From the NCBI GenBank assembly GCA_963768055.1, contig CAVYGN010000001.1, positions 256,001 through 320,000 on the forward strand: a DNA stretch of 64,000 nt. Direction: 5' to 3'. Source of the DNA: an uncultured Spirochaetota bacterium (GTDB lineage: Bacteria; Spirochaetota; Brevinematia; Brevinematales; JAOACQ01). Each line of letters begins with the position of its first letter. Position 1 is the first letter of the stretch. The translations under genes and the position numbers were made by a program. The notes below the pieces were generated by a model. The model ran no database searches. It had not been told where the DNA came from and saw nothing but the letters and a program-made list of their open reading frames with translations. Shown one piece after another: positions 13,278 through 58,425 of this stretch.

Positions 13278-13280
13278 GAT

Positions 13281-14722: not shown

Positions 14723-14745
14723 TTATCGGAAATTCGAGGCGGAAT

Positions 14746-17384: not shown

Positions 17385-17496
17385 AATGACCTCTTTTTAA
17401 TAATTTTAATTTATTTCTGCCAAAATGTAAATGGAAAGAAGATTGCAAATAATTGCTAGAAATTTTAAAATTTATTTGATATAAGGAACAAAAAAG

Positions 17497-18836: not shown

Positions 18837-18901
18837 CACCTTTTCCTGTTCAGAATCTAAAAAATCAAACATACTCTCCGGAAAAAACCGGAGGGGAATG
18901 G

Positions 18902-20443: not shown

Positions 20444-20461
20444 AGATAATGAGGAGGAAAT

Positions 20462-25813: not shown

Positions 25814-25873
25814 ATTGAAACCTGATAAAGGTAAAGCAAATTGTCAAAATCTTAACATAAGGAGAAACATACC

Positions 25874-27487: not shown

Positions 27488-27502
27488 AAGAGGCTGAATG
27501 CT

Positions 27503-29728: not shown

Positions 29729-29752
29729 TAAATCGGCAAAAAGGAGAAAGGT

Positions 29753-30802: not shown

Positions 30803-30811
30803 GAGGCCGTT

Positions 30812-35379: not shown

Positions 35380-35390
35380 AGGTTGGAATT

Positions 35391-36923: not shown

Positions 36924-36945
36924 AAAATGTTTATGGAGACTGCGA

Positions 36946-38310
36946 ATGAACAATTTTTTTGATTTTCTGAGTAATCCAGACTCTCAGTTCGTATTTATCT
37001 TACTGCTTTTTATAATAGGAGCCGCGATTGTTTTCTTTATCATTCTAAAGATGATCAATAAAAATCTATCGATTTCTGTAATTGAAAAAGCGGTCAATGA
37101 AAAAAACTATAAGCAGGCTCTCGAATCGGCTTTCAAATATTTAAAGTCAAAATCATCCAACTATTTTATTTATTATTACATGGGCAAGGCATACGAGGGC
37201 CTTTTTCAATACCATATGGCGATCGAATCCTATGAGAAGTCGCTGGTTCAGGTTGGTAAAACATCCGCGCAGAGTAGAGGTGTTGAAATACAATTGAAAC
37301 TGGCTAATCTATTCCGCATTATTAAAAAATTCGATTCGGCCTTCGGATATTATAAAATGGTTCTGACAAAACAATCTAATAATAAGGACGCCCTCTGGAA
37401 TATAGCCGGGCTTTATTTTGAACAGAAGAAATATGTCCCGGCCAAGCAGTGCCTGGAAAAAATCACAGTCCTTCAGCCTAAATTCGGCAAGGCAAAGTTA
37501 TTACTTGCAAAAATTTATTTCCAGCTTGGCGAATATCAGAAATCTATTGTTGAGCTTAAGAAATTCTTTGCAGTGAATGATGAGGTATCCCTGACTGTTG
37601 GCAGTGAAACCTCCCTTCTGCTGGCAGATAATTATATCGCTTCAAAGCGGTACGGTGATGCTATCAAAACATTAAAGCCGCTATTGAATGATAAAAATGC
37701 TTCAGGGACTATATTATTAAAAGTAGTAACATGCCTTATCAAAGACAATAAATCCGAAGAGGCGATAGCGCTGACTGAGGACTACCTGCTCCGTATACCG
37801 GTCCTGGAAAGATGCGGAATCCTTTATACGATCGGATCAGCATACAAAGATATCGGGGAAATTTATAAAGCGATTTTAGTCTGGAAGGCTGCTTACAGCC
37901 TTAACCCGAATTATCTTGATCTGAACAATATATTTTCACGCTATAGTAAATTGGTAAACAATCCATGGCTTGAAAGCTATTTTACTTCAAACGACTTTAC
38001 TTTTGAGAAATACGTTCGCAGGAAACTTGAAATTTTCATGCAGGATAATCTGATAGAAAAACAGCAAATATTCTGGATTTTTAAAAATGGGAATAACTGC
38101 TCAGTACTATACAGGCCGCCGGAAATCATAAGCCTGCTCTCGCTGGAGAGGATTGAGGACTTCTTCAACAGTACCGGTTATTCCAATATCTCCATCGATC
38201 TTTACACCCTTTTCGGGGTGGAAGTTGACGGAAAGACAAAGAGCCTTTTTTATAAAAAAATCAAGGAAATTTCCGAGGATGGTTTTCTGCATGTTTTTAA
38301 TAAAGATTAG
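36946..38310 (+). CDS. Membrane-anchored TPR protein
   Basis: N-terminal TM, multiple TPR-like helical repeats; start after GGAG RBS. Confidence 0.75.
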   Translation: MNNFFDFLSNPDSQFVFILLLFIIGAAIVFFIILKMINKNLSISVIEKAVNEKNYKQALESAFKYLKSKSSNYFIYYYMGKAYEGLFQYHMAIESYEKSLVQVGKTSAQSRGVEIQLKLANLFRIIKKFDSAFGYYKMVLTKQSNNKDALWNIAGLYFEQKKYVPAKQCLEKITVLQPKFGKAKLLLAKIYFQLGEYQKSIVELKKFFAVNDEVSLTVGSETSLLLADNYIASKRYGDAIKTLKPLLNDKNASGTILLKVVTCLIKDNKSEEAIALTEDYLLRIPVLERCGILYTIGSAYKDIGEIYKAILVWKAAYSLNPNYLDLNNIFSRYSKLVNNPWLESYFTSNDFTFEKYVRRKLEIFMQDNLIEKQQIFWIFKNGNNCSVLYRPPEIISLLSLERIEDFFNSTGYSNISIDLYTLFGVEVDGKTKSLFYKKIKEISEDGFLHVFNKD

Positions 38311-38348
38311 ACTGTCAGTAAAAGAATGAAAAGGGGAGGAAATATTAT

Positions 38349-39038
38349 ATGCTGAAAAGGAAAATACTCATTGTGGAAGACGAGATCATGATAGCAAGAG
38401 AAATAGAACGACTGCTTGAAAACCTGGGTTACGAAACAGCTGAAATTGCCGGATCGGGAGAAGAAGTAATTGAAGAGGTTAAAAAAGGAGATGTCGATCT
38501 GATCCTTATGGATATAGTCATTAAGGGAGAGCAGGACGGCATACAGACAGCCCAGACTATACAGGAACAATTTGATATCCCGGTCATTTTTTTGACCGCA
38601 TATTTCGACGATAATACACGGGAACGGGCTAAACTAACGGAACCCTTCGGGTATATCATAAAACCTGTTCAGAAGAAGGAACTGCAGATAGCGATTGAAA
38701 TGGCATTTTATAAGCATCAGGCAAACGCTCTTATAAAAAAAGAAAAGGAATGGCTCCATACAATCATTGACAGCATCAAGGACGGCCTGATAGCAGTGGA
38801 TACCGACGACAAAATAAAGTTCATCAATATACAGGCCGCTTCACTCTGCGGATACAGCCCTGAAGAAGCGGCCGGAAAAGAACTGGGAGATATCCTGAAG
38901 ATGAAGATAAGCGACTCGAGCAATGAAGCATCGCTTATTCATAAAAACGGAGAAAAAAAAAGCATATCATATTTCCTTAAAGACACTTTTGATAAAAAAG
39001 GGGAGCGAATCGGCGCAGTAATATTTTTCAATGCTTAG
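38349..39038 (+). CDS. Response regulator REC-PAS without output domain
   Basis: ILIVEDE, LILMDI, IPVIFLTA, TEPFGYIIKP; C-terminal PAS. Confidence 0.85.
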   Translation: MLKRKILIVEDEIMIAREIERLLENLGYETAEIAGSGEEVIEEVKKGDVDLILMDIVIKGEQDGIQTAQTIQEQFDIPVIFLTAYFDDNTRERAKLTEPFGYIIKPVQKKELQIAIEMAFYKHQANALIKKEKEWLHTIIDSIKDGLIAVDTDDKIKFINIQAASLCGYSPEEAAGKELGDILKMKISDSSNEASLIHKNGEKKSISYFLKDTFDKKGERIGAVIFFNA

Positions 39039-39114
39039 TACTACCCCGCCGGTAAAGTAATGAAGAGAGGCAGCCCAACCCCTTCAGGTCATATGTCCCT
39101 TCTTATTGATTGGG

Positions 39115-39609
39115 TCACCCAATATTAAAACAATATCCCGCCTCTGTATATTTTTTATTCCCAAGTATTATTTCTTTATATTTTTTTTCGATTCCGCCAT
39201 GTTTTTTATAAAAGTTATTAAATTTTGTCGTACTTAATGTCCATACGATTAATTTTTTTCGGTTATTCTTTTTAAAGTAAGAAACCATTTTATTAAATAA
39301 CTTTGAACCTATTCCTTTATTCTGGCAATCAGGATCGACATAAAATTCGATTATTTCCGAATCATATTCCGACAGCCTCAGTTTGCCGGAAATAAAACCT
39401 GCTATTTTATTATTTTGTTCATAAACGAATGCTTTAATTAAATTAAAATTGATTTCTTTAGTAAGATTTTTTGTATATTTATTTTCATTATATTTTAATT
39501 CCATCAAAATGTCAGGATAATTTTTACTGGTAAATACTTCTTTTTTCCAAACTTTAGTAATTATTGAAGTCATTGAATTAATATCGTCTGCAGCAGCTTC
39601 TCTGATCAT
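39115..39609 (-). CDS. GNAT acetyltransferase
   Basis: MIREA...D, YVDPDCQNKGIGSKL, FYKKHGG; AT-rich. Confidence 0.85.
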   Translation of the reverse strand: MIREAAADDINSMTSIITKVWKKEVFTSKNYPDILMELKYNENKYTKNLTKEINFNLIKAFVYEQNNKIAGFISGKLRLSEYDSEIIEFYVDPDCQNKGIGSKLFNKMVSYFKKNNRKKLIVWTLSTTKFNNFYKKHGGIEKKYKEIILGNKKYTEAGYCFNIG

Positions 39610-39908
39610 ATTCTATTACTCCGGATTTACGGAACTAAACAGACACGCTAAATTTTAAAAACATTTAACATATATAATACTGATCCTTATTTCCCGGTAA
39701 GTCAAGATGAAAATTATTATATTTTTGTCATGATGTTCATTAAAGCTGACAAATCATTTGTTTATTATGAAACAAGTTTTTTAAAAATTTATGACTTAAG
39801 GGCGCCTCTAAAATACCCTGCGGGCACAAGCCCTTCGGATAGGAATCCACTAACGGGGACAGGGCGCCCCATAGGCAAATTTATAGAATTAAGCAATAAA
39901 TTATTTAT

Positions 39909-41912
39909 TTAAGGTAAAATTCTTGAGTTATTAATACTGCCCTTAATACACTCTTTCGGCTCGCTGAAATAAAACCCCTGGGAATAATCAATACCCAGTT
40001 CCAGGCATTTTTCATACACTTCTTTGGAATGGACGAATTCCGCTATGGTCAAAATACCGAGTTCTTTCGCGGCGTTGACTATCATTTTCGCAATAATGTA
40101 ACTTTCTCGATCTTTATCGATGTTCTTTATTATGGAAGCGTCGATCTTGATATAATCGACTTTCAGTTTGATGATATATTCAAAATTCGAATAACCGGCG
40201 CCGAAATCATCTATGGCGAACTTGCACCCCAAAGCTTTAACTTCACTGATAAAATCGGTCATAACTTTAAAATTGAAAATGCCCTCCGATTCAGTTATCT
40301 CAAAGACCGTGCGGCGGGCAATGCCGGCATTTCGGTAGAGCATATGTTTAATGAGACGGTTCGTATCCTGGTTTAGGATATCTTTTACCGTAAGATTGAT
40401 CGAAAACTCGTCGGCGGTATCTTTAAAAATTCTGAAAGCCTTTTTGATTACGATGCTCGTTATCTGGCTATAAAGCCTGATTTTCTGAGCTATAACGAGA
40501 AAATTATACGGACCGATCACTTCCCCATCGGTATCAATCATTCTGACAAGGCATTCATAATTACTGACTTTTCCGTTTTTATTATTGACAATCGGCTGGT
40601 AGTAGACTGTAATACGGTCATCTTTTAATGCTTTCTTCAATTTGTCTGCCCACAGGATATTTTTCTCATATTCCTTATTGATCTCCATTGATTCCTCATA
40701 AACAAGGAAGGATTTTTTAATTTTTTTAGCCTCTTTGAGCACCATATCGGCGTTATTGATAATTTTGCTCTTCAGGGAATTAGCTGAAGAGTATTTATCC
40801 AGGCAGCTATAATCGGCAACACCGATCGTAACGCGGATATTGATTTCATGATTTTCAAATATAAAAACATTGTCATTAATCAGTTCAAACAGGTATTGAA
40901 CAATATAGTCAACCGATTTTCTGCTGGAATAGGTCGAGTCCAGCGGCAAATCCATTAATATGGCAAATTCATCCCCATGCATTTTATAGATATGATAATC
41001 ATAGCCGAAAGACAGCTTATTCAATCGGGCGGACATTTCCAGCAGGATATAATCCCCCGCTTCGTTCCCAAAAAAATCATTGATCTCTTTAAAAGAATCT
41101 ATATTGATCAGGAGTATCAGGGGATTTTTCATATTCTCAATATCCAAGATAAGTTTTTCACGGTTAGGCTGTCCGGTCAGTGAGTCGGTATAAAGCCTTC
41201 GGGAAAGCGACTCTTTTAAATCAACAAATTTATTGATCAGTGAGCCGTTCATGGATAAAATGAGTATCAGAAAAGCATATTCCATAGTATAAATGAAAAC
41301 ATATATTTTATTTGAAACCATGACATCGTTCATAATAAAGAAGAAAAAAACAACCAATGCGCCGATTATCGGCCTTGTATATTTGTTATAATCCGATTTA
41401 TTTGTTTTTATCAGGGCATAGAGAAATAGAAAATAACATAAAATCTGAAATGCATATTCGATAATATAAATTATGCCGGGAGTCGCTTCATAGTATGTGA
41501 ATTTGCGGTTAAATATTGAAAAATGCTTTATGGCCGTGTTGTTTATTGAAAATGTCAGGTCGTTCTGGACAAAAATGCCTAATAAGAATAAAACCAGGTT
41601 TATTATTATAAAACAAATAAGAAATGGTTTATATTTTTTTCCCAATAAATAATAAATAAACAAACCCAGGGCGATGCTGATGAAATTCGTAATGGAAAGC
41701 TGAAGCCTTTGCCAGATAATTCCCTGCTCAAGGGAATTTGAATTATAGAGACCGGAACAGAATATATCGTATATACAGACAGTTACTGACAAAAAAGCGA
41801 ACGCAAAATATTCCATTTCTTTCCGTTGCTTCAGGTAGAGGAAAAAATGGTATATTGCGGTATAGAAGCAGACCGCAGCCATTAAGAGAGGCGGTATAGA
41901 TAATATAGACAT
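39909..41912 (-). CDS. Membrane sensor GGDEF(degenerate)-EAL phosphodiesterase
   Basis: About 7 TMs; HGDEF; YQPIV, ECLVR, SINL, FEITE, IDDFGAGYSN, IKID, SQGFYF. Confidence 0.88.
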   Translation of the reverse strand: MSILSIPPLLMAAVCFYTAIYHFFLYLKQRKEMEYFAFAFLSVTVCIYDIFCSGLYNSNSLEQGIIWQRLQLSITNFISIALGLFIYYLLGKKYKPFLICFIIINLVLFLLGIFVQNDLTFSINNTAIKHFSIFNRKFTYYEATPGIIYIIEYAFQILCYFLFLYALIKTNKSDYNKYTRPIIGALVVFFFFIMNDVMVSNKIYVFIYTMEYAFLILILSMNGSLINKFVDLKESLSRRLYTDSLTGQPNREKLILDIENMKNPLILLINIDSFKEINDFFGNEAGDYILLEMSARLNKLSFGYDYHIYKMHGDEFAILMDLPLDSTYSSRKSVDYIVQYLFELINDNVFIFENHEINIRVTIGVADYSCLDKYSSANSLKSKIINNADMVLKEAKKIKKSFLVYEESMEINKEYEKNILWADKLKKALKDDRITVYYQPIVNNKNGKVSNYECLVRMIDTDGEVIGPYNFLVIAQKIRLYSQITSIVIKKAFRIFKDTADEFSINLTVKDILNQDTNRLIKHMLYRNAGIARRTVFEITESEGIFNFKVMTDFISEVKALGCKFAIDDFGAGYSNFEYIIKLKVDYIKIDASIIKNIDKDRESYIIAKMIVNAAKELGILTIAEFVHSKEVYEKCLELGIDYSQGFYFSEPKECIKGSINNSRILP

Positions 41913-42213
41913 ATACTCTATTATAAATAATATTTATAAAATATCAATACTTCAGTCAATTAATTGTTGTTGAAAAATAATTATTCATTGGCCTTTTTTG
42001 TGGTACCGTCTATCTTTTCAATTTTATCCGGTGCAGTATTATCCCCGAGGACTCCGGGATGGATGTTCAGAACTTATTTCACCCTTCATTACATGCACGT
42101 TTTTTTGAATAAAATCCATATCCATGCCATAATATGGACTGATAGGATTTATTAATCTTTCCTTTCCGAATTATTCCAATCAATATATTTTCTTATCAGC
42201 CGGGAGATTATGA

Positions 42214-44034
42214 ATGTTAAAGAATAAATTCCGAAATATAGCCATTATTGCACATGTGGACCATGGTAAAACCACGCTGGTCGACGCAATGCTCCGGCAG
42301 AGCGGTGTTTTCAACGGCCATCAGGAACTTCAAGAACGTGTAATGGATTCCATGGACCTGGAAAAAGAACGGGGCATCACTATCGCTGCAAAGAATACAG
42401 CCGTTTATTACAATGGGATCAAGATTAATATTATAGATACTCCCGGGCATGCCGATTTCGGCGGTGAAGTTGAAAGAAGCTTGAATATGGTTGAAGGGGT
42501 GCTTTTGCTGGTTGACGCCAGCGAAGGCCCTCTTCCCCAGACCAGGTTTGTACTCAGGAAAGCCCTGGCGAAAAAGCTTCTTGTAATTCTGGTAATAAAT
42601 AAGATCGACAGGAAAGATGCCCGGATAGAAGAGGTTGTAAGCGAAGTTTATGACCTTTTTATCGACCTGGGCGCAGATCACGATCAAATAGAGTTTCCGA
42701 TCCTTTATACTGTAGCGACTGATGGAGTTGCGTATAAAAATATTGGCGACGATTCAAAAGATCTAAAACCACTGTTTGAAACTATTATCGGATACATACC
42801 GGCACCGGAAAGCGGCATCCGGGAACCCCAATTCCTTATAACCAATCTGGATTATGATTTTTATGTCGGGCAGGTCGCCCTGGGAAGGATGTTCAACGGA
42901 AAACTGGAACTGGCAAAAACTTACGCCCTCTCCAGCGGCGATAAATTAACAAAGAACATAAGGTTCTCCAACCTTTTTACCTACCACGGATTGACAAAAA
43001 AACAGGTGAATGAAGTTGAAGCCGGTGATATTGTCGCCGTATCCGGCGTGGAAAATGTCAGCATCGGCGATACAATTACATCGGAAGATAATCCGATGCC
43101 GCTTCCCGGAATCCGTGTCGATGAGCCGACGGTATCCATGATCTTCTATGTCAATTCGAGCCCTATCGCCGGAAGGGAAGGCAAGTACCTTACTACCCGG
43201 AATATTAAAGCGAGACTTGAAATTGAGTCATTACGGAATGTTTCCATCCGTGTTGAAATAACCGACCGTGCCGATGCTTTCAAGGTATCCGGCAGGGGAG
43301 AACTGCAATTGGGGATCCTTATCGAAACAATGCGCCGGGAGGGATATGAACTGATGGTCTCCAAACCTACTATAATTACAAAAACAATTAATGGACAGAT
43401 ACAGGAACCGTTTGAAAGGGTCTTTTTCGATATCCCGGAAGAGTACATAGGGGTGGTGTCGGAAAAAATGGCCCAGAAGAAAGGAAAAATGGAAAACATG
43501 AAGCACAGCGGCTCCGGCAGAGTGATCATAGAATGCGTCTGCCCGACCCGCGGGCTCATCGGCCTTCGGAGCCAGTTTTTAACCGATACCCGCGGCCTGG
43601 GCATAATAAACTCGATATTTGAAGGTTACAGGGATTGGGCCGGAACGATCCGGCACAGGATTAACGGTGTACTGGTCGCCGACAGGGCCGGCAAATCAAA
43701 TTCTTATGCACACCTGGCCATGGAAGACCGCGGAGAGCTTTTCCTGAATGTCGGAACAGAAGTTTACGAGGGCATGATCGTCGGAGAGAATAACCGGGAT
43801 CATGATCTGGATGTCAATATTACAAAAGAAAAAAAACTCACCAATATGCGAAGTTCAACGTCGGATCAGACAGTCGTTCTGAAAACCCCCAGGCTGCTGT
43901 CTCTTGACGAGGCGATCGAGTTCATCGCCGAGGATGAACTGGTCGAAGTTACGCCGGGCAGTTTCCGGATGCGTAAAATGGAAATGGATCAGAACAAAAG
44001 GGCCATTCTCAATAAAACGCATAATCTGAAATAG
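42214..44034 (+). CDS. typA: Translational GTPase TypA/BipA
   Basis: RNIAIIAHVDHGKTTLVD, DTPGHADFGGEVER, NKID, GRGELQL, KKLTNMRS, DELVEVTP. Confidence 0.97.
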   Translation: MLKNKFRNIAIIAHVDHGKTTLVDAMLRQSGVFNGHQELQERVMDSMDLEKERGITIAAKNTAVYYNGIKINIIDTPGHADFGGEVERSLNMVEGVLLLVDASEGPLPQTRFVLRKALAKKLLVILVINKIDRKDARIEEVVSEVYDLFIDLGADHDQIEFPILYTVATDGVAYKNIGDDSKDLKPLFETIIGYIPAPESGIREPQFLITNLDYDFYVGQVALGRMFNGKLELAKTYALSSGDKLTKNIRFSNLFTYHGLTKKQVNEVEAGDIVAVSGVENVSIGDTITSEDNPMPLPGIRVDEPTVSMIFYVNSSPIAGREGKYLTTRNIKARLEIESLRNVSIRVEITDRADAFKVSGRGELQLGILIETMRREGYELMVSKPTIITKTINGQIQEPFERVFFDIPEEYIGVVSEKMAQKKGKMENMKHSGSGRVIIECVCPTRGLIGLRSQFLTDTRGLGIINSIFEGYRDWAGTIRHRINGVLVADRAGKSNSYAHLAMEDRGELFLNVGTEVYEGMIVGENNRDHDLDVNITKEKKLTNMRSSTSDQTVVLKTPRLLSLDEAIEFIAEDELVEVTPGSFRMRKMEMDQNKRAILNKTHNLK

Positions 44035-44367
44035 TTAACCCTGCCAGTTTCATAGCTGTTTAAAACGCAATATTGATAATTATCATTGAAAAATCAATAA
44101 TAAAATTTAAGTTTGACTATTCGTTATATTATAGTTATATATAGTTGTAATTATTAATTTTCTTTTTGTATCAAGGGTACACTCTAATTGTAAAAATGCC
44201 TTCATGTATGAAAGACGACACCGCATAGCAGAATATGTAATCGTAAAAATCAAAGCTAAAATAACCTCTGTTTTTAAATACAAAAAAAGTTTAAGTGCTT
44301 TATAATAAGTGAGAGTTGGAGTAATGACCGGAGGGAGATGGATGAATCCCTAAAAAAAGGATTTAAA

Positions 44368-45585
44368 ATGAACATTTTGGTTTTTAATTGCGGGAGTTCA
44401 TCTGTATCTTACAAAGTTTTTAAGGTTACAGATTTAGATAAATTTGATGTTATCATCGCCGGTAAAGCTCATAGAGTAGGGGTAACAGGCAGCGAACCTT
44501 CATTTATTGAGCATGAGTATAAAGAAATAATTCATAAAGATGTTTTACCAATAACCAGTTACGGGCAGGCCGCAAAGCTGATATTAAAATTCATTAAAGA
44601 AAATAATGTAGTAATTGATTGTATAGGCAATAGATTTGTTCACGGCGGGACTTATTTCAATAAATCAGTTTTCGTTAATGAGGAGAACTTGAAAAAACTT
44701 AAATTGTGTCTCCCGCTGGCGCCTCTTCATAATCCGATAGCCTTAAGGGTTATTTTTGAATCAAGGAAAGTTTTTACTAATATAAGTCAATATGTGGTTT
44801 TTGATTCTGCATTTCATTCAACTATTCCTGATTACGCCTATACTTACGCTTTGCCGAAACGTATAGTGGAAAAATACAATTATCGGAAATATGGTTTTCA
44901 CGGGCTTTCATATTCATACGTTATTAAAACTGTTTCTGATTTTTTAGAAATACCGTCTGAAAAACTGAAAATCGTAGCATGTCACCTCGGAACAGGCGGC
45001 TCAAGCGTTGCGGCTATTAAAAATGGTTATTCTGTTGACACTTCTATGGGTTTTTCTCCTTTATCAGGTCTTGTAATGAGTACAAGAAGCGGGGATATTG
45101 ACCCTATGATTATGATATATATGATGGTATTTTATGGATATAGGAATGACGATCTGTTGAATTTTCTCAATAAAAAAAGCGGTCTGCTTGGCGTTTCCGG
45201 ATTTTCAAGCGATATAAGAGATATTATAAGCAGGATTTCCGTAGAAAAACAGGCGGGACTGGCTTTCAAAATGTATATACAACGCTTAAAAAAATATATT
45301 GGAAGTTATATTATTGCTGCATTAGGAGGGATTGATGTTTTAATTTTTACGGATGATATAGGCGTTAAGAATCCGCTTGTCAGGGAAAAAGTATGTGAAG
45401 ACATGGAATGGTGCGGGATTGTACTGGACAAAGAAAAAAATAAAAAATACGGAATGAAAAAGCCGGAGCTTTTGAATTCAATGGACTCAAAAGCCCGTAT
45501 TATTGCTGTTCCGACAGATGAGGAAGTTGTGATAGCCTGGGAAGGATTAAAATTGTTAAAGGAAGAAAAAAATGCTGCTCTTTGA
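44368..45585 (+). CDS. ackA: Acetate kinase family protein, Entamoeba-like loop signatures
   Basis: NCGSSS, RFVHGG, APLHN, FDSAFH, YGFHG, TRSGDIDP, TDEE; atypical CHLGTGGSS and FTDDIG; start after AAGGA RBS. Confidence 0.88.
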   Translation: MNILVFNCGSSSVSYKVFKVTDLDKFDVIIAGKAHRVGVTGSEPSFIEHEYKEIIHKDVLPITSYGQAAKLILKFIKENNVVIDCIGNRFVHGGTYFNKSVFVNEENLKKLKLCLPLAPLHNPIALRVIFESRKVFTNISQYVVFDSAFHSTIPDYAYTYALPKRIVEKYNYRKYGFHGLSYSYVIKTVSDFLEIPSEKLKIVACHLGTGGSSVAAIKNGYSVDTSMGFSPLSGLVMSTRSGDIDPMIMIYMMVFYGYRNDDLLNFLNKKSGLLGVSGFSSDIRDIISRISVEKQAGLAFKMYIQRLKKYIGSYIIAALGGIDVLIFTDDIGVKNPLVREKVCEDMEWCGIVLDKEKNKKYGMKKPELLNSMDSKARIIAVPTDEEVVIAWEGLKLLKEEKNAAL

Positions 45586-46618
45586 ACCTGAAGCTCCTTA
45601 TTTGAATTGGTTTTTGATAAATAAAGGAAAAATTGAAGAGGGCAAATTCATTTTTGATAGAAAATGCATGGACGCAGTGAGTGAGAAACTTGGCGGAATT
45701 GAAGATGTGAAAAAAATAGGGTATATTTTATATCATGGAGGTGAAGAAATTAAATCACCGGTAAGTCGTTTAACGGATAATAATATTATTGATTTTGAGA
45801 AGTGTGTTAAATACAACCCCGAACTTAATGATATAACCTTCAAGACTGCGAAATACTGGATGAAAAGAATTCCCGGTGCTGAGCATTTTTTGTTTTGCGA
45901 CACTGCATTCTTTTTAAAACTTCCGCAAGAGTCCAGTTCTTATGCCATTCCATATGAGCTTAGCAGGATAGGTGTAAAAAGATATGGAGGATATGGCTTA
46001 CTCCACCGGTGGGTTTACAAAAAAACCGAACATTTGAATAAAAATGGTATTCATAGATTGATAAGTGTTTATTTAGGAAATAATACTAACTTAGCCGCCA
46101 TAAGTAATAATAGGCCACTGGATACAAGCATGGGTTTTACCCGAATAGAGGGGATAATGTCATCGGGAGGGTGCGGTGATATTGATCCTACGATTATATT
46201 TAATCTTAATTCCGCAGGTTTGGAATTTAAAGAAATTAACAAGCTGCTCAGCCGGGAAAGCGGGTTTTCAGCTTTTCCAGGCAAAAATAACGATTTTTTT
46301 AATGTTATAAATAGAATTAATAAGAGGACTTCAGCGGATGTAAAAGAAGTTTTCTGCTATAGTATAGTAAAATACATCGGGGCTTTTATTGCCGAGCTCG
46401 GGGGTGTTGATTCAATAGTTTTTTCAAGTGAAAATCTGCGGGCTGCCGGCAGTTTTATTATGGAAATAATAAACAAACTTCAATTTTTAGGGGTTAAATG
46501 TAAATTAAAAGAAGAAGGGGATAAGGATTTTTTAAAAATATCAGAAACACGCTCGAAAATTAAAGTATATTGTTTTAATTACAAAAAGTGGAATATTCTT
46601 GATCAAAAATATATTTAA
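45572..46618 (+). CDS. Acetate kinase-like paralog, predicted catalytically inactive
   Basis: HGG, DTAF, YAIP, DTSMGFT..EG, GDIDP, KYIG..AELGGVD retained; NxGSSS, both catalytic Arg, FHG His and TNEE lost. Confidence 0.8.
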   Translation: MLLFEPEAPYLNWFLINKGKIEEGKFIFDRKCMDAVSEKLGGIEDVKKIGYILYHGGEEIKSPVSRLTDNNIIDFEKCVKYNPELNDITFKTAKYWMKRIPGAEHFLFCDTAFFLKLPQESSSYAIPYELSRIGVKRYGGYGLLHRWVYKKTEHLNKNGIHRLISVYLGNNTNLAAISNNRPLDTSMGFTRIEGIMSSGGCGDIDPTIIFNLNSAGLEFKEINKLLSRESGFSAFPGKNNDFFNVINRINKRTSADVKEVFCYSIVKYIGAFIAELGGVDSIVFSSENLRAAGSFIMEIINKLQFLGVKCKLKEEGDKDFLKISETRSKIKVYCFNYKKWNILDQKYI

Positions 46619-46629
46619 GGAGTGAAGGA

Positions 46630-47421
46630 ATGATTAAAGAAAAAGCATTTTTAGAAGATGTGGGAATGAGAGACCTTCCATTTCCAATGAAGGTAATCTC
46701 GAAATTTAACGCGGATGGACAGCCTACTATCGCGAATATTTCCATTAATGCGCGCATTATGCGGGATTTTGAACCGGAATGGATAGATAAGTTTATAAGG
46801 ATTCTGCATTCTCATAGGGAAAAAATAGGAACCAGCACACTAACCACGAATATTTTAGATTATCTTAAAGAATTGAATGCGTCAATGGTTGTTATTGATT
46901 TTAGTTATCCATTTTTTATTGAAAAAACAACCCCTGTATCAAAAGAAAAATGCCTTGTCAGATACATGTGCTCTTACAGCGTAAAAGCTTATCTCACTAT
47001 GGATAAACCTGATATACTTTTTAAAATATCGGTTCCGGCCCTTACTACATATCCACTTTCAAATGAAGAACTGAAAGGGGGTTTATTCGCACAATTAAGC
47101 ATTGTAAATATTGAGATTGAGCCTAAAAAACAGATCTTTCCGGAGGATATTGTAGATATTGTCGATAGGCATGCAATAGCCCCGGTTTATTCTTTTCTGA
47201 CAAAAGAAGACCAGAATTTCATCATTAACAAATTACATACCGAGAAAAAAACAAGTGTTATTCTGACCGATGAAATAAAGGATGAATTTGCACATAATAG
47301 TGAAGTTGAATGGTATAAAGTCAGCTGTACGAATTATGGAATGATGCATTCATACCTCACTTTAATCAGTACTGAAAAAAGTATGTGGATTCCATTCAGC
47401 GGTATCGAAGAAGAGATTTAA
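46630..47421 (+). CDS. FolE2 (GTP cyclohydrolase IB)-like T-fold protein, active-site motifs lost
   Basis: VG...L.FP, Q.TIA, YPFFIEK.TPVS, ED, VYS.L scaffold; HMSR, CPCS, AHxQR, KRxDE, FVED and ESIH are all substituted. Confidence 0.75.
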   Translation: MIKEKAFLEDVGMRDLPFPMKVISKFNADGQPTIANISINARIMRDFEPEWIDKFIRILHSHREKIGTSTLTTNILDYLKELNASMVVIDFSYPFFIEKTTPVSKEKCLVRYMCSYSVKAYLTMDKPDILFKISVPALTTYPLSNEELKGGLFAQLSIVNIEIEPKKQIFPEDIVDIVDRHAIAPVYSFLTKEDQNFIINKLHTEKKTSVILTDEIKDEFAHNSEVEWYKVSCTNYGMMHSYLTLISTEKSMWIPFSGIEEEI

Positions 47422-47443
47422 TTTTTAAATTCGCGGACAATAA

Positions 47444-47740
47444 TTAGGCTGTGGGATTAGACATTTCCAATACAAAAGCGAACATATAGTCGAGCTTTTC
47501 CTGGGGAACATCCTTGTAATGGATCTCTATTTTTTCACCGTCAACCCGTGATACGGTGGCCGATAAATTTTCATTGCCCACTTTTATATTGATCAAATCC
47601 CCGATGGCAAGACAGCCTTTAACCAGCATCTCGATGCCGGTCGAGGTTATATTTGTGATTAAACAGGGGCATCTGATGCCGTTCCATTCATAAAAAGAAC
47701 TTATTTCATGAATTTTTTTATCGAAATTTCTTTTTTCCAT
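47444..47740 (-). CDS. Stand-alone PilZ-like domain protein
   Basis: MEKRNFDK (RxxxK), NITSTG, beta-rich; start after GAGGG RBS. Confidence 0.6.
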   Translation of the reverse strand: MEKRNFDKKIHEISSFYEWNGIRCPCLITNITSTGIEMLVKGCLAIGDLINIKVGNENLSATVSRVDGEKIEIHYKDVPQEKLDYMFAFVLEMSNPTA

Positions 47741-47792
47741 TAATTCCCTCCAAATTTGATGTGAATAATACTGACCTGTTTTGAGCGGCAAG

Positions 47793-48161
47793 TCAAGATT
47801 TCCTGCCCTTCCAGTAACTATCTTCTACGCGCAAGTGCTCTATAAGCGCCTTGAGGGGCCAATGGATATTCTCGTTTGTCGGAGTGCAGAATATCGGACG
47901 CTTTACTTTTGCAACAGAAACAGCCTGCAGGGCTTTTTGAATATCTTCGTCCGAGAAAGCGAGGAACATCATAATGGGGGTCCCGTTTTCCTCGAAATTC
48001 GAACATTCGGCCAGTTCAAGCACCTCCTGGAGGGTCTTTTCCTCCATTCCGGAAGCACTCAGCAGGACGATGTCCCTGTTCAGGCAGTCCTCGACAGCCT
48101 TGCGAAGGCTCATGGCGTCAGCTTCGCTGTATCCGTAAAGAAGGATGCCGGTTTTATCCAT
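47793..48161 (-). CDS. DUF3783-like protein
   Basis: ILLYGY, MMFLAFS...I, PIFCTPTNENIHWPLK.LIEHL..E; GGAGG RBS. Confidence 0.7.
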   Translation of the reverse strand: MDKTGILLYGYSEADAMSLRKAVEDCLNRDIVLLSASGMEEKTLQEVLELAECSNFEENGTPIMMFLAFSDEDIQKALQAVSVAKVKRPIFCTPTNENIHWPLKALIEHLRVEDSYWKGRKS

Positions 48162-48345
48162 GTAGAAGCCTCCGGGGGTTCTTATCCCCTAGCCACGCGA
48201 ATAAACTTTCCATATTATTATGAGATAATTTCACAGATATTTCAAAAATTATTTCCTCATAGGGATTATCTGTGCCATCAGAAATCAGCAGGTGGTTCGA
48301 GGGCCCCATCAGTAGTAGATGAAAATTTAACCTTTGCATTGAACC

Positions 48346-48374
48346 TTGTCAAAACGGCATATCTATTATAAAAT
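48346..48374 (+). promoter_or_regulatory. Putative sigma70 promoter of the glycosylation cluster
   Basis: TTGTCA-17bp-TAAAAT. Confidence 0.45.
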
Positions 48375-48440
48375 ATTCCTTAGGTTTTAATGATTGTATT
48401 ATAAATACAGTTGAAGCCGATATAAGGATGAAAGAAAAAA

Positions 48441-49400
48441 ATGATTAACAACTTTAAACTTTCAGTCATCGTTCCCGTTTACAATGAAGAAAAAAATATT
48501 CCCCCATTGCTTGAAAGACTGAATAAAGTCATATCCGAAATCGGATGTGAATATGAAATAATATTCTGCATGGACCCCTGCAGGGATAAAACCGAAGAAT
48601 TAATACTGAATTACAGGAAAAAAGACGCCAATATTAAATTGATAAAAATGTCGCGCCGTTTCGGCCAGCCTGCCTGCACGCTGGCGGGGATCCATTACTG
48701 CACGGGCGTTATCTGCGTTGTGATTGACGCCGATCTCCAGGACCCGCCGGAATTGATTAAAGAAATGATTGCAAAATGGAAGGAAGGCTACCATGTTGTC
48801 TATGCCCAGCGGAAGAGCAGGAAGGGTGAAACCATTATAAAAAAACTCGTGGCCTTTCTAGGCTATAAAATCATCAACAGGATATCCGATGTGAGTATTC
48901 CGAGAAATACCGGAGATTTTCGGCTTATAAGCAGGGAAGTAATAGATAATTTAAAGGTATTAAAAGAAAACGACGCCTTTTTAAGAGGGCTGGTCGGTTA
49001 TATAGGGTTCAACCAGATAGGTATTTTATATGAAAGGGATTCAAGGCTGAACGGTAAAGGTAAATATAACAGGTTTTTCGGTTCTCTTAAAATCGGTTTG
49101 AACGGCGTTCTAAGTTTTTCCAAGTATCCGCTGGATTTGATATCGATTTCAGGTTTAATAGTCGCTTTATTCAGTTTTTTATTGGGAATTGCATATATCA
49201 TATTCAGCCTGCTGCATATTAAGATTCCCTGGGGAAATCCCACTCTTGTTATTTTAATTTCCTTTTACAGCGGAATCCAGCTGTTAAGCCTTGGAATCAT
49301 CGGCCAATACCTCGCGAGAATGTTCGACGAGGTCAAAAGGAGACCGATTTTTATTGTCCAGGAAGCGCATGGGTTTGAAATTATCTGGGAAAAAGAGTAG
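48441..49400 (+). CDS. GtrB-like polyprenyl-phosphate glycosyltransferase (GT2)
   Basis: SVIVPVYNEE, SRRFG, DADLQDPPE, GDFRLISR, two C-terminal TMs, KRRP. Confidence 0.9.
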   Translation: MINNFKLSVIVPVYNEEKNIPPLLERLNKVISEIGCEYEIIFCMDPCRDKTEELILNYRKKDANIKLIKMSRRFGQPACTLAGIHYCTGVICVVIDADLQDPPELIKEMIAKWKEGYHVVYAQRKSRKGETIIKKLVAFLGYKIINRISDVSIPRNTGDFRLISREVIDNLKVLKENDAFLRGLVGYIGFNQIGILYERDSRLNGKGKYNRFFGSLKIGLNGVLSFSKYPLDLISISGLIVALFSFLLGIAYIIFSLLHIKIPWGNPTLVILISFYSGIQLLSLGIIGQYLARMFDEVKRRPIFIVQEAHGFEIIWEKE

Positions 49401-49412
49401 TTTGTATAAATT

Positions 49413-49877
49413 ATGTGGAATAGCATTATTACACTTTTTCAAAATATAATATCCGATAAAATAGAAATTTATAAAAAAATTAAATTCCTGTTCATAGGCG
49501 GGACCACCGCCCTGGTGAATTTTTCTCTTATCTATCTGACCAACGGAATTTTAAAACTTAATCATAATTTATCGATTTCAATTTCTTTTTTCTCTGCGAT
49601 GATTTATCATTTCATGATGAACAAAATGTTTGTTTTCCAGGAAAAAAAATTATCGAGGCTCAAGTACCAGATCATTCAATACCTGATTTTATCATTTATA
49701 AATTATTTGATCAATCTGGGGGTCGTAAACTTATTACTCCTGTTCAAGATCAATATTTACATCGGGGTTGCGGCCGCGACAATAATAACAATGCTGTTGA
49801 CATATTTTATCATGAATAGATTGATTTTTAACAAAAAAGCCGCCGGCTTTATAAATTTATCCAGGAAAACGGAGTAA
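49413..49877 (+). CDS. GtrA-family flippase-like protein
   Basis: KFLFIGG...VN, F.MNK.FVF, four TMs. Confidence 0.85.
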   Translation: MWNSIITLFQNIISDKIEIYKKIKFLFIGGTTALVNFSLIYLTNGILKLNHNLSISISFFSAMIYHFMMNKMFVFQEKKLSRLKYQIIQYLILSFINYLINLGVVNLLLLFKINIYIGVAAATIITMLLTYFIMNRLIFNKKAAGFINLSRKTE

Positions 49878-49881
49878 TAAA

Positions 49882-50835
49882 TTGAAGTATTTTGTTACCG
49901 GCGGCGCCGGATTTATCGGGAGCAATATAACCGACAGGCTCCTTGACACTAATAATTCAGTAACCGTTTATGATAATTTTTCCACCGGATTTGAAGAGTT
50001 TTTAAACAGTGCGAAAAGATCTCCCGGCCTTAAAATAGTCGGGGGAGACTTGTTAGACCCGGAAACGCTTGCAGCCGCAATGCGGGACTGCGACTTCGTA
50101 ATACATTTTGCGGCAAATGCCGATGTAAGGTTCGGGATGGAACACCCGCAAAAAGATTTAAATCAGAATATCATCGCGACTTATAATGTTCTTGAAGCAA
50201 TGCGGAAAAATAATATTAAAAAAATCGCTTTTTCATCGACAGGCTCGATTTATGGAGAATCAAAAATTATTCCCACCCCTGAGGATGCGCCCTTTCCGGT
50301 TCAGACCTCCCTTTACGGAGCCTCAAAATTGGCCGGCGAAGGCTTGATCCAGGCTTATTGCGAGGGTTTCGGGTTTCAAGGGTGGATTTTCAGGTTTGTA
50401 TCAATCCTGGGGGAACGGTACACGCATGGGCATATTTTTGATTTTTATAAAATGCTCCTTGAAAATCCCGATAAACTCAGGGTTTTAGGGAACGGACATC
50501 AGAAGAAGTCTTATTTATACATCCAGGACTGCATCGACGCGATTTTTTTCGCCCTGGAAAAGTCGGACGATGAAGTAAATATTTTCAATCTCGGTACAAA
50601 CGAATACTGCGAAGTAAACGATTCGATCGGCTGGATTTCCGGCAATCTTGGCCTGAAGCCGGCACTGGATTATACCGGCGGAGAGCGCGGCTGGATAGGG
50701 GATAATCCTTTTATATTTTTAGACTGCTCGAAAATAAATAAACTTGGCTGGAAGCCCGGATTATCTATTAAAAGCGCGGTTATAAAGACTCTTGAATATT
50801 TAAAGGAAAACAAATGGATTATGGAAAGGAGATAA
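49882..50835 (+). CDS. NAD-dependent NDP-sugar epimerase/dehydratase
   Basis: TGGAGFIGS, HFAA, SST, YGASK; TTG start. Confidence 0.9.
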   Translation: MKYFVTGGAGFIGSNITDRLLDTNNSVTVYDNFSTGFEEFLNSAKRSPGLKIVGGDLLDPETLAAAMRDCDFVIHFAANADVRFGMEHPQKDLNQNIIATYNVLEAMRKNNIKKIAFSSTGSIYGESKIIPTPEDAPFPVQTSLYGASKLAGEGLIQAYCEGFGFQGWIFRFVSILGERYTHGHIFDFYKMLLENPDKLRVLGNGHQKKSYLYIQDCIDAIFFALEKSDDEVNIFNLGTNEYCEVNDSIGWISGNLGLKPALDYTGGERGWIGDNPFIFLDCSKINKLGWKPGLSIKSAVIKTLEYLKENKWIMERR

Positions 50836-50839
50836 ATAA

Positions 50840-51673
50840 TTGAAATCTGTAATTGTTTTCGGCGGAAGCCTGGGAATCGGCAAAAAGATAGCTTTTCATT
50901 TTTTAGAAAATAAATATAATGCTACAGTGTTTGCAAGGGCAAAAAGCAACCTGGAATTATTCCGCAGAGAAGCTGAAGATAAAGGGATGCATGCTAACAT
51001 TCAACAGGGAGATGTCGGAAATATCGATGATGTGAAAAATGCTTTTAAAGAACATAAAAAGAATTATGGCTCATTCCCTTCTTATGTGATAAATACCGCG
51101 GGGATCCAGGGGGCGCTGGGGCCGGCCTGGTCGCTGTCGCAGGCGGATTTTGAAAATGTAATTAAAGTAAATCTAACCGGAAGTTTTAATGTTTCAAAAA
51201 CGGCGATCGAGAATTTAATCGGGGAAAAGAAATCCGGGTCGATCATACTTTTTTCAGGCGGAGGATCATGCTACGCGCGTCCGAATTTTTCTTCATACGG
51301 GGTTTCAAAAACCGGGGTGATCAGACTTGTTGAAACAATAGCGGAAGAGCTGAAACAAAACGGCCTTAAAGGTATAATAATTAATGCAGTCTCGCCCGGC
51401 GCTGTAAGAACCAGGATGACGGAAGAAGTATTAAACTCGAAAGAAAGAGCCGGGGATAAAGCCTTCGGAGAAGCAAAAAAAACTATGGAAAACGGCGGGA
51501 CCCGTCTGAAAGACGTGATCGAACTGGTCGATTTTTTATGCAATAATGATTTAAACAAGGGTTTAAGCGGCAGATTGATACATTTCAGGGACGATTATAA
51601 AAAATTCGCAGAAATTCAAAAAGATAAAATCCATGATGATGCCGGGAAGCTCCGGAGAGTAAAATTGATATAA
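50840..51673 (+). CDS. SDR family oxidoreductase
   Basis: GGSLGIG, NTAG, YGVSK, NAVSPG. Confidence 0.88.
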   Translation: MKSVIVFGGSLGIGKKIAFHFLENKYNATVFARAKSNLELFRREAEDKGMHANIQQGDVGNIDDVKNAFKEHKKNYGSFPSYVINTAGIQGALGPAWSLSQADFENVIKVNLTGSFNVSKTAIENLIGEKKSGSIILFSGGGSCYARPNFSSYGVSKTGVIRLVETIAEELKQNGLKGIIINAVSPGAVRTRMTEEVLNSKERAGDKAFGEAKKTMENGGTRLKDVIELVDFLCNNDLNKGLSGRLIHFRDDYKKFAEIQKDKIHDDAGKLRRVKLI

Positions 51674-51683
51674 AGAGGTACCG

Positions 51684-52658
51684 ATGAATGTCGCTATAAT
51701 CGGCTGCGGACTGATCGGGGAAAAGAGGGCGAGATCGCTCTGCGGCCATAAATTGGTGATCGTATCCGATAAAGACGGGAAAAGAGCCGATATTGTCAGC
51801 CGGATAAATAATCAGAACGCTATTGTCGCCAGGCATTGGGAAGAAGCGGCCGCTCATCCGGAGGTTGATATTGTCATTGTTTCAACAACGAACGATTCTT
51901 TAACGAGGATCGGATCATACGCCCTGGGCCATGATAAGCATGTTTTGATAGAAAAACCCGGGGCAAGGAATTCCGCAGAAATAGAACCCTTTTATAGGCA
52001 AAGCCTCAGTGTAAAAAAGAGGGTAAAAGTAGGTTTCAATTTACGGTATCATCCGGCGCTTTCAAAGGCTAAAAACATAATCGATTCGGGGGGGATCGGC
52101 GGATTGATGTTTATTCGAGGGCGGTACGGCCATGGCGGCAGGGCCGGGTATGATAAAGAATGGAGGGCAAACCCGGAAATTTCCGGGGGTGGAGAACTGA
52201 TCGACCAGGGCATTCACCTGATCGATTTATCCCGCTGGTTTATGGGGGATTTTGATATTATCGAAGGTTTCGCGTCTACATTTTTCTGGGATATGAAAGC
52301 GGACGATAACGGTTTTATTTCTTTAAGGAATGGGTCGGGCAGGGCTTCTTGGCTGCAGGTAAGCTGTACGGAATGGAAAAATATGTTTTGTCTTGAAATT
52401 TATGGGAAATATGGAAAACTCCAGATCGACGGACTTGGAGGAAGCTACGGGATTGAAACGCTCAAATTTTATAAAATGCTTCCGGAAATGGGGCCGCCTG
52501 AAACGACTATATGGGAATATCCGCAGGAAGACAGGTCCTGGGCGCTGGAGTTAAATGATTTTGTCGAAGCGATAGAAAAAAAAAGGGCTGTAAACGGCGA
52601 TTTAAACGATGCGTACCAGGCTCTGAAAATTGTCGATAAAATCTATGGGAGAATTTAA
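51684..52658 (+). CDS. Gfo/Idh/MocA oxidoreductase
   Basis: IIGCGLIG, HVLIEKP, GFNLRY, GGGELIDQGIH. Confidence 0.9.
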   Translation: MNVAIIGCGLIGEKRARSLCGHKLVIVSDKDGKRADIVSRINNQNAIVARHWEEAAAHPEVDIVIVSTTNDSLTRIGSYALGHDKHVLIEKPGARNSAEIEPFYRQSLSVKKRVKVGFNLRYHPALSKAKNIIDSGGIGGLMFIRGRYGHGGRAGYDKEWRANPEISGGGELIDQGIHLIDLSRWFMGDFDIIEGFASTFFWDMKADDNGFISLRNGSGRASWLQVSCTEWKNMFCLEIYGKYGKLQIDGLGGSYGIETLKFYKMLPEMGPPETTIWEYPQEDRSWALELNDFVEAIEKKRAVNGDLNDAYQALKIVDKIYGRI

Positions 52659-53642
52659 ATGATAATTACCAGAAGTCCGCTGAGAATAACATTAGGAGGC
52701 GGAGGAACAGATCTCGCTTCTTATTATAATGAATTCGGCGGGTTTGTGATCGCTGCCGCGATCGATAAGTATATTTATATAACCCTGCATAAAACTTTTC
52801 AGCCCGGATATATAATAAAATACTCCCTGATGGAAAAAGTCATGGAAATTTCGGATATACAACATCCGATAATCAGGGAATCGCTGAAATTATTAGACTT
52901 GAAAGATAATTATATAGAACTTACAAGTATGGCGGATATTCCTTCCGGTACAGGCCTTGGCTCATCGAGCAGTTTCACGAGCGCTCTATTGAAAGCCCTT
53001 CATGTCTATAAAAGGGATTTTATTCATCCGAAAGAACTTGCCGAAGAGGCCTGCGATATTGAAATTAATAAACTCGGAGAACCGATAGGAAAGCAGGACC
53101 AGTACATTTCAACGTACGGAGGTTTAACCTGCTTCGACTTTAACCGGGATGGAAGTGTAGGGTCATATCCTTTAAGGATCGATAAAGAGACATTATATGA
53201 CCTGGAGGATAATCTGCTGCTGTTTTTTACAGGTTTTTCCAGAAGCGCTTCTTCGATATTAAAGGAACAAAACGATAAAAGTATTGAAAAAAATATCGAT
53301 ATGATAGAAAACCTTCATTTTGTAAAAGACCTGGGATTAAAAAGCAAGGAGGCTTTAGAAAAGGGCGATTTAACTAACTTCGGAGAATTGATGAATATTC
53401 ATTGGGAACATAAGAAAAAAAGATCGGGTTCTATTTCGAACCCGAAGATAAATGAATGGTACGACCTTGCCTTAAAGAACGGGGCTGCAGGAGGCAAACT
53501 TATCGGCGCCGGCGGAGGAGGTTTTCTGATGTTTTATGCCAAAGATAAGATCAAGTTAAGACATGCATTAATGAACGAAGGCCTTGAAGAAATCCGCTTC
53601 AGATTCGATTACGAGGGAACAAAGGTTGTTACGGAATCATGA
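52659..53642 (+). CDS. hddA: D-glycero-alpha-D-manno-heptose 7-phosphate kinase (GHMP)
   Basis: PLRITLGGGGTD, PSGTGLGSSS, GKQDQY, GKLIGAGGGGF. Confidence 0.85.
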   Translation: MIITRSPLRITLGGGGTDLASYYNEFGGFVIAAAIDKYIYITLHKTFQPGYIIKYSLMEKVMEISDIQHPIIRESLKLLDLKDNYIELTSMADIPSGTGLGSSSSFTSALLKALHVYKRDFIHPKELAEEACDIEINKLGEPIGKQDQYISTYGGLTCFDFNRDGSVGSYPLRIDKETLYDLEDNLLLFFTGFSRSASSILKEQNDKSIEKNIDMIENLHFVKDLGLKSKEALEKGDLTNFGELMNIHWEHKKKRSGSISNPKINEWYDLALKNGAAGGKLIGAGGGGFLMFYAKDKIKLRHALMNEGLEEIRFRFDYEGTKVVTES

Positions 53643-54361: not shown

Positions 54362-54383
54362 ATTTAAAATTACGGAGACCGGA

Positions 54384-55568: not shown

Positions 55569-55578
55569 GAATGAGATT

Positions 55579-58409: not shown

Positions 58410-58425
58410 ATTTCAGGAGGAAACG

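Follow-up and report, generated by a model that had tools for sequence, protein, structure and literature searches.

Acetate kinase and acetyl phosphate are central to fermentative energy conservation and to acetyl-phosphate signalling, and to our knowledge acetate kinase appears in the literature as a stand-alone homodimer. In a 64,000-nucleotide stretch of DNA from an uncultured Spirochaetota bacterium (contig CAVYGN010000001.1, positions 256,001 to 320,000; the whole stretch is referred to below as the window), a gene for an acetate kinase, g1, is followed by two genes, g2 and g3, whose products resemble acetate kinase (AckA) and the GTP cyclohydrolase FolE2, respectively, and lack the catalytic residues of these parent families. 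Why would an acetate kinase be encoded together with two such partners? The locus is an apparently undescribed, widespread and strongly selected combination of known folds. A heteromeric acetate-kinase system, made up of a non-ATP kinase (g1), a pseudokinase (g2) and an AckA-associated T-fold protein (g3), is our tentative answer, to which we give slightly less than an even chance. The locus comprises the following features, with folds taken from AlphaFold2 (AF2) models and Foldseek searches.

44368..45585, + strand: g1, complete acetate kinase assigned to the Entamoeba-like (EhACK-like) clade, 405 amino acids (PF00871, TIGR00016; closest solved relative 4h0o)
45572..46618, + strand: g2, AckA-fold pseudokinase, 348 amino acids (partial PF00871 match, AF2/Foldseek fold, catalytic residues lost)
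46630..47421, + strand: g3, FolE2-like bimodular T-fold protein lacking the metal site of FolE2, 263 amino acids (PF02649, AF2/Foldseek)
44353..47425, + strand: extent of the cassette common to the closest relatives (tblastx)
44035..44367, + strand: AT-rich intergenic region 5' of g1, presumed promoter region (sequence inspection)

Gene order and distribution of the cassette

The three open reading frames (ORFs) are co-directional and free of frameshifts. In the window g1 and g2 overlap by 14 nucleotides (nt) and a gap of 11 nt separates g2 from g3, while the GC content is 0.32-0.36 over positions 44001-47000, as against 0.43-0.49 in the adjacent typA. The ORF list and the GC values agree with the first-pass annotation of this DNA, which had described a tightly packed, AT-rich operon. 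Its further statement that all ORFs are full length holds for g2 only in so far as the predicted fold is still AckA-like; g2 is ~50 residues shorter than AckA, the deficit lying in domain I. An alternative ATG for g1 is found at 44338 (giving 415 amino acids), 10 codons 5' of the MNILVF start and directly after the stretch GGAGGGAG; the orthologs support a start at 44368 rather than at 44338. Promoter-like hexamers at 44073-44101 match at 10 of 12 positions, and the regional count of such hexamers is that expected by chance (16 found, 15.4 expected). Scans of the cassette region for promoters and terminators gave chance-level results, and a search for a riboswitch or other RNA 5' of g1 returned no Rfam family better than E 0.6.

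To place the cassette in other genomes, g3 was used in a genome scan, which was positive in 203 species genomes. The gene context was obtained for 80 of these 203 loci and fell into four groups:

39 of 80 loci: g1-like and g2-like genes adjacent to g3 (34 in the order g1-g2-g3, 3 in the order g3-g1-g2, 2 cut by a contig end)
8 of 80 loci: an ordinary acetate kinase nearby
21 of 80 loci: no AckA-like gene, each flank covering 2.4 kb or more
12 of 80 loci: no AckA-like gene, with one flank shorter than 2.4 kb

The 39 cassette loci bear at least 10 phylum labels, the record labels being Spirochaetota, Omnitrophota, Planctomycetota, Auribacterota, Sumerlaeota, Myxococcota, Elusimicrobiota, Acidobacteriota, Bacteroidota and Pseudomonadota. 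Conservation of the neighbourhood, which had been proposed as a check on the first-pass annotation, is thus borne out.

Junctions between the genes were analysed in 25 cassettes whose gene calls were clean. Between g1 and g2 the junction lay within -23 to +2 nt in all 25, with an overlap of 4 nt in 14 of them, and the g2/g3 junction lay between -34 and +16 nt in 24. This spacing indicates translational coupling of the cassette genes. The first codon of the g1 orthologs was TTG in 16 of the 25 cassettes (L006, L009, L010, L012, L013, L015, L016, L017, L021, L023, L030, L032, L048, L060, L072 and L077) and GTG in one; g2 started with ATG in all 25 and g3 in 24. The TTG is often preceded by a good GGAGG-type site, and at L009 the TTG start is forced because an in-frame stop codon stands directly before it. 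ATG is the start codon of g1 in the window and in its two closest relatives. The TTG starts of g1 may serve in setting subunit ratios.

When positions 38000-56000 of the window were compared by tblastx with loci L001, L002 and L011, similarity was confined to 44353-47425 and no flanking gene was common, even where the relatives were 83-85% identical. Because the closest relatives share nothing outside this interval, the triplet appears to travel as a self-contained mobile cassette. AT-richness was considered as a mark of recent transfer and discarded as a weak signal, the cassette mean being only 2.3 GC points under the flanks (25 loci); with so small an offset, the non-syntenic flanks are the better argument for transfer. 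All-against-all clustering of 1058 ORFs revealed no extra conserved neighbour of the cassette, an ABC/FtsX pair (clusters 18 and 19) standing beside it at 4 loci only. At L046 (13500-14726, - strand) and L049 (14352-15581, - strand) an ordinary ackA of the ATP type is present in addition, ~5 kb away from the cassette. Hence, the cassette adds to the housekeeping acetate kinase and does not replace it.

Two small ORFs on the - strand converge on the cassette in the window, one at 47444-47791 (115 amino acids, with only a weak ProQ_C match) and one at 47793-48161 (122 amino acids, DUF3783). Neither recurs beside the cassette at other loci. The PADLOC profiles for anti-phage defence gave 0 families for g1, g2, g3 and these two downstream ORFs.

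Residues retained and lost in the three proteins

The product of g1 matches PF00871 with 376.9 bits (cut-off 22) over profile positions 2-391 of 392, and TIGR00016 with 389.3 bits, above the cut-off of 293.4. Taking Asn7, Arg91, Asp148, His180, Arg241 and Glu384 of the Methanosarcina enzyme as the catalytic residues of AckA, all are present in g1 (Asn7, Arg89, Asp146, His178, Arg240 and Glu385 in its own numbering) and retained in 29 of 29 orthologs. The closest solved relative is 4h0o, the acetate kinase of Entamoeba histolytica (EhACK), at E 1.5e-108. Besides the catalytic residues, g1 shares with EhACK an extended PHOSPHATE2 loop with a second Gly (GTGGSS, in 29 of 29 orthologs) and, in the ADENOSINE motif, an Asp in place of the Ala or Gly of ATP enzymes (FTDDIG, in 28 of 29); an Asp just before position 323 of this motif is found in 29 of 29. 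It differs from EhACK in having Asp-Ile in place of Gln323-Met324, the pair that occludes the adenosine pocket. The signature of ATP-type acetate kinases is not matched by g1, which has neither the Gly-Ile/Val ADENOSINE motif nor the short PHOSPHATE2 loop, whereas the ordinary AckAs of loci L022, L064 and L046 read FT[GA]G[IV]GE and HLGN-G.S. In ATP-type enzymes the conserved Gly-Ile/Val of the ADENOSINE motif corresponds to Gly331-Ile332 of MtACK, and EhACK is the sole acetate kinase known to use inorganic phosphate (Pi) and pyrophosphate (PPi) in place of ADP and ATP, according to the part of PMC5517563 available to us. A handful of bacterial relatives of EhACK are described there (Dang and Ingram-Smith 2017, PMC5517563), with the extended PHOSPHATE2 loop and its second Gly, the ADENOSINE Asp and a further Asp at the Gln323 position; the Asp at this last position is common to g1 and the Anaerolineae sequences of that paper. 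This 2017 note is the nearest published statement to the present finding. Within the available part of the paper (PMC5517563) neighbour genes are not mentioned and no partner genes are described for EhACK or the Anaerolineae sequences, whereas g1 is here always accompanied by g2 and g3. By its motifs, g1 is thus placed in the Entamoeba-like clade, the only one in which a PPi/Pi-dependent enzyme is known, in line with the atypical, possibly PPi-using kinase of the first-pass annotation.

The g2 product matches PF00871 with 170 bits over profile positions 80-380 only, and with 162.1 bits it remains under the cut-off of TIGR00016. Its AF2 model (predicted local distance difference test, pLDDT, 80.9; predicted template-modelling score, pTM, 0.82) aligns in Foldseek with solved acetate kinases at template-modelling (TM) scores of 0.78-0.84. 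Across 29 g2 orthologs, and in the same Methanosarcina numbering, Asn7 of PHOSPHATE1 is replaced by Asp or Glu and the GSSS loop is gone; Arg91 has become hydrophobic (Arg in 0 of 29) and Arg241 is Gly, Ser or Ala (Arg in 1 of 29); His180 of the FHG motif is Tyr, Phe, Gln or Asn; Glu384 of the TNEE motif is Lys in 19 of 29; and the ADENOSINE motif is unconserved. The alignment and the orthologs confirm the losses first read from the window, namely the NxGSSS loop, both catalytic Arg, the FHG His and the TNEE Glu. Asp148 is kept in 28 of 29 orthologs, together with GDIDP, and the family has invariant residues of its own (Y51, L53, E84, H145 and C201). With the ordinary, homodimeric, ATP-dependent AckA, TdcD and PduW proteins (PF00871) g2 shares the fold and the short PHOSPHATE2 loop; it differs from ordinary AckA in its shorter domain I and in the lack of the PHOSPHATE1 loop, the four catalytic residues just listed as replaced (Arg91, His180, Arg241, Glu384) and the ADENOSINE motif. 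The scores of g2 are 143 bits against Thermotoga/Porphyromonas AckA and 97 bits against EhACK. Because of these higher scores against ordinary AckAs and the short PHOSPHATE2 loop, g2 is not a recent copy of g1. Of the earlier label, a dead kinase paralog, the AckA fold and the loss of catalytic residues stand.

FolE2 is a homotetramer with active sites at the subunit interfaces, and T-fold proteins typically bind purines or pterins. The g3 product scores 76.3 bits against PF02649 (cut-off 25) and stays under the cut-offs of all three NCBIfam equivalogs: FolE2 (NF010200, 62 bits, cut-off 215), GTP cyclohydrolase IV (22.9, cut-off 468) and MptA (16.3, cut-off 220). Its AF2 model (pLDDT 86.4, pTM 0.83) is a bimodular T-fold that matches the FolE2 structures 2r5r, 8g8v, 8tcc and 3d2o in Foldseek at TM scores of 0.81-0.84 and 19-22% identity. 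In FolE2 the metal ligands are Cys154, His166 and Glu208, Cys156 and His253 are conserved, and Glu250 is the proposed base (numbering of the B. pseudomallei enzyme; available part of PMC11573665). At these sites g3 has Tyr141 for Cys154, Leu143 for Cys156, Phe153 for His166, Gln195 for Glu208 and Gly237 for Glu250, only His253 being kept (His240); Phe153, Gln195 and Gly237 are invariant in the g3 family and Tyr141 is at least 90% conserved. The canonical KGTHMSRF motif reads FEPEWIDKF. Since the metal ligands, the base and this motif are replaced, g3 is not a GTP cyclohydrolase. Compared with FolE2 (3d2o, 8g6c, 2r5r) and archaeal MptA (PF02649), the bimodular T-fold and Asp194, Glu172 and His240 are common to g3 and the canonical members; identity is 19-27%, and the metal Cys/His/Glu, the second Cys, the Glu base and KGTHMSRF set g3 apart. 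The genomic context also differs, being acetate kinase for g3 versus folate/queuosine genes or zinc homeostasis for FolE2.

Sixty columns are invariant among 34 members of the g3 family, including H60, H62, R63, E98, K99, C108, C114, Q155, D194, Q195, H203 and H240. A search with g3 yielded 706 relatives, the best 120 of which are all at least 60% identical; clustering of the family at 50% left a single full-length representative, and a few more distant relatives, 30-38% identical, likewise have no FolE2 site. In the ESM Atlas, g3 retrieved FolE2-named clusters only. Mean pairwise identity is 59% for g1, 42% for g2 and 64% for g3, the last ranging from 53 to 94% across phyla, so that constraint is strongest on g3. 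The g3 proteins form a distinct family. The first-pass description of g3 as a FolE2 scaffold without its active site was accurate as regards the three metal ligands, the proposed base and the retained T-fold. The term dead FolE2 is right about the lost site and undersells the rest. The order of gains and losses is not taken from the g3 tree, a quick tree with a weak backbone.

Outside the cassette, g3 is found with ordinary acetate kinases. At L022 (labelled Pirellulales) pta is followed by an ordinary ATP-type ackA and then by g3, which overlaps ackA by 4 nt. At seven Geobacteraceae loci the gene directly 5' of g3 is aldehyde-dehydrogenase-like; pta and an ordinary ackA closely precede it, and an Ech-type hydrogenase operon with hypA and hypB follows g3. 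Synteny around g3 is conserved at these loci (L043, L062, L064, L069, L070, L074 and L080, about 3000-16000 in each), the order being a NiFe-hydrogenase-like gene, ordinary ackA, pta on the opposite strand, the aldehyde-dehydrogenase-like gene (451 amino acids), g3, a six-gene Ech/complex-I-like membrane hydrogenase and hypA/hypB. The same aldehyde-dehydrogenase-like gene stands 5' of g3, and hydrogenase genes 3' of it, at L054 (labelled delta proteobacterium), where the 16.8-kb stretch holds no AckA-like gene. Because g3 occurs in three independent contexts (the cassette, L022 and Geobacteraceae), it appears to be tied to acetate kinases with or without g1 and g2. Its presence beside ordinary ATP-type AckA and at loci without any AckA-like gene argues that it is not simply a subunit of the g1/g2 pair.

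Selection, fusions and competing explanations

Selection on the three genes was estimated as the ratio of nonsynonymous to synonymous substitution rates (dN/dS) by the Nei-Gojobori method in 13 pairs. The ratios were 0.05-0.16 for g1, 0.10-0.28 for g2 and 0.03-0.14 for g3; they are rough because dS is often >1, and the two least saturated pairs agree with them. Genes 2 and 3, for which dN/dS had been proposed as a check, hence do not evolve neutrally. That g2 and g3 might be decaying remnants or hitch-hikers without function, brought next to g1 by accident, is an idea fed by their loss of the catalytic residues of the parent families. We regard it as extremely improbable, given that dN/dS is well under 1 in all 13 pairs, that the ORFs are intact in at least 25 genomes, that g3 retains its identity across phyla and both families their specific invariant residues, and that the gene order is kept at nearly half of the loci for which context was obtained (39 of 80). 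Neutral decay of g2 and g3 is excluded by these data. The distance matrices of g1, g2 and g3 are moreover correlated (Mantel r 0.81-0.86, p 0.001).

In a protein of 623 amino acids (P0121) a full-length g2 (42% identity over 346 residues) and a full-length g3 (64% identity) are connected by a linker of ~13 residues; the protein occurs on 2 contigs, the sources being ncbi, jgi and lgn. A second candidate, P0122 (483 amino acids), was rejected as a Rosetta-stone fusion. In it, the N-terminal ~300 residues of a g1 ortholog run straight into the C-terminal ~180 of a g3 ortholog, with g2 missing altogether, as would result from a deletion within a cassette or from a chimeric assembly. Complex prediction with g1 1-395, g2 1-343 and g3 1-262 (alignments of 26 rows each, g3 as partner) gave a score of 0.00 twice, with the controls not folded, and weighs neither way. 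Taken together, the junctions, the correlated matrices, the bounded cassette and P0121 favour a common function of the three genes, probably in a complex.

From the families, the residue patterns, the gene order, the purifying selection and the single g2-g3 fusion observed, we infer how such a system could work. The three genes would form one mobile functional unit centred on acetyl phosphate. In it, g1 would be the catalytic subunit which, with its altered adenosine pocket motif, may interconvert acetyl phosphate plus Pi and acetate plus PPi, or use another non-ATP donor/acceptor; the non-ATP partner would most likely be Pi/PPi. The pseudokinase g2 may stand in for the second AckA protomer of the ordinary dimer, resulting in an active/inactive heterodimer. 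The T-fold protein g3 would dock on the AckA fold, with g2 as its partner in the cassette and ordinary AckA as its partner where a lineage lacks g1 and g2. In this position it may tune acetyl-phosphate turnover, in a regulatory or ligand-binding role and with neither catalytic metal binding nor GTP hydrolysis. We hold a bolder version to be rather unlikely, in which g3 would represent a new, extremely conserved T-fold family with an ancestral role in partnering acetate kinases. The first heteromeric acetate kinase would then consist of a catalytic, non-ATP (PPi-forming) subunit (g1), a pseudokinase subunit (g2) and a T-fold subunit (g3).

Several points weigh against a heteromeric kinase. EhACK is not known to require such partners, and physical contact among the products of g1, g2 and g3 is something that we infer. 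At the 21 of 80 loci where g3 is alone its neighbours are heterogeneous (CBS, GNAT, TauE, GH20-like and M20 genes, at three loci each) and have no common theme, so g3 is not strictly dependent on adjacent g1 and g2. P0121 is the one full-length fusion cluster found, and it could be an assembly artefact caused by a lost stop codon. A second fusion search, with g2 as query, gave only ordinary AckA-PduL-cNMP fusions and none of the g2-g3 type; it is weak evidence, because P0121 itself was not recovered. The invariant polar residues H60, H62, R63, E98, K99, C108 and C114 of g3 would suit a new catalytic site equally well as a binding surface. As to the donor, the authors who described the bacterial EhACK-like enzymes left undecided whether it is PPi, ATP or another compound, and PPi use is unproven for any bacterial member, as far as the available part of the paper goes (PMC5517563).

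The same seven residues, which are absent from canonical FolE2, lend themselves to a possible if doubtful explanation in terms of a metabolic pathway rather than a complex. Here g3 would be an active enzyme with a new T-fold chemistry, forming or using up a small carboxylate, aldehyde or acyl phosphate. This compound would gain or lose a phosphoryl group through g1, and g2 would have a non-catalytic role in binding or regulation, so that the link among the genes would be metabolite flow and not stable binding. The strong constraint on g3, its occurrence alone at 21 loci and its position beside an aldehyde-dehydrogenase-like gene, pta and ackA in Geobacteraceae are consistent with such a pathway, as is the proposal that the homologous kinase of Entamoeba works with an aldehyde-to-acetyl-phosphate step (available part of PMC9983610). 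However, no catalytic centre can be named in g3, because all three metal ligands and the proposed base E250 are replaced, the data suggest no substrate, and a full-length g2-g3 fusion and overlapping stop/start codons are more typical of subunits. We consider it improbable that the kinase pair uses a substrate or donor other than acetate with Pi/PPi (for example another short acid, a non-ATP nucleotide or polyphosphate) which g3 supplies or presents. Such a role of g3 would fit the general knowledge that T-fold proteins are purine or pterin binders, as well as the Foldseek neighbours of g3. Nevertheless, Val91, Phe177 and Pro231 of g1 align with positions which we take, from the Methanosarcina enzyme, to form the acetate pocket, and the KGTHMSRF motif, presumably part of the GTP site, is replaced by FEPEWIDKF in g3. 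In favour of another donor is the Asp-Ile of g1 at the EhACK Gln323-Met324 position, since such enzymes may be neither ATP- nor PPi-dependent (available part of PMC5517563). Among these explanations the heteromeric acetate-kinase system remains the one that we prefer.

Other genes of the window and significance of the cassette

Elsewhere in the window, remnants of mobile DNA occupy 14746-21208. They include a fragment of a TrwB/TraD-type coupling protein (14746-15768), an island of 25-27% GC with a PLD-like protein (15938-17200, - strand) and a DUF3644 protein (17497-18462), and, after the island, an IS21-type pair consisting of a transposase with a Mu-transposase C-terminal domain (18902-20374) and IstB (20462-21208). 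Genes for chemotaxis and signalling form a long + strand cluster (22988-39038) that encodes two CheW, CheR-TPR, a methyl-accepting chemotaxis protein with a CHASE3 domain, CheA-CheY and CheB, and in addition a hybrid histidine kinase of 1158 amino acids, an HD-GYP-type response regulator and further regulators. A protein of the PEP-mutase family is encoded at 56427-57269 (- strand), and a split glutamate-synthase-like pair at 57582-59904 (+ strand), of which one member has a GXGXG domain and the other is a Glu_synthase protein that also carries a 4Fe-4S domain.

In the literature searched, which largely leaves subscription journals uncovered, we found neither an acetate kinase paired with a pseudokinase or a FolE2-like protein nor an active/inactive AckA pair, and no FolE2 paralog family without the metal site. 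The first-pass annotation, which knew of no description of the triplet, was not contradicted by this search.

If the heteromeric system is real, g2 and g3 would be the first accessory subunits for acetate kinase. On the bolder version, many anaerobic phyla would have a hitherto unknown layer of control, or of energy conservation, at the acetyl-phosphate node, and the unusual Entamoeba enzyme would be given its bacterial source and context. The cassette would make the donor of the bacterial EhACK-like enzymes, a question raised in 2017, amenable to testing. The g3 family, with 706 database matches and 203 species genomes, is at present automatically and wrongly annotated as GTP cyclohydrolase FolE2/MptA and would gain a context. 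Where g3 is counted as FolE2, the folate and queuosine capacity of uncultured phyla may be over-called in metabolic reconstructions.

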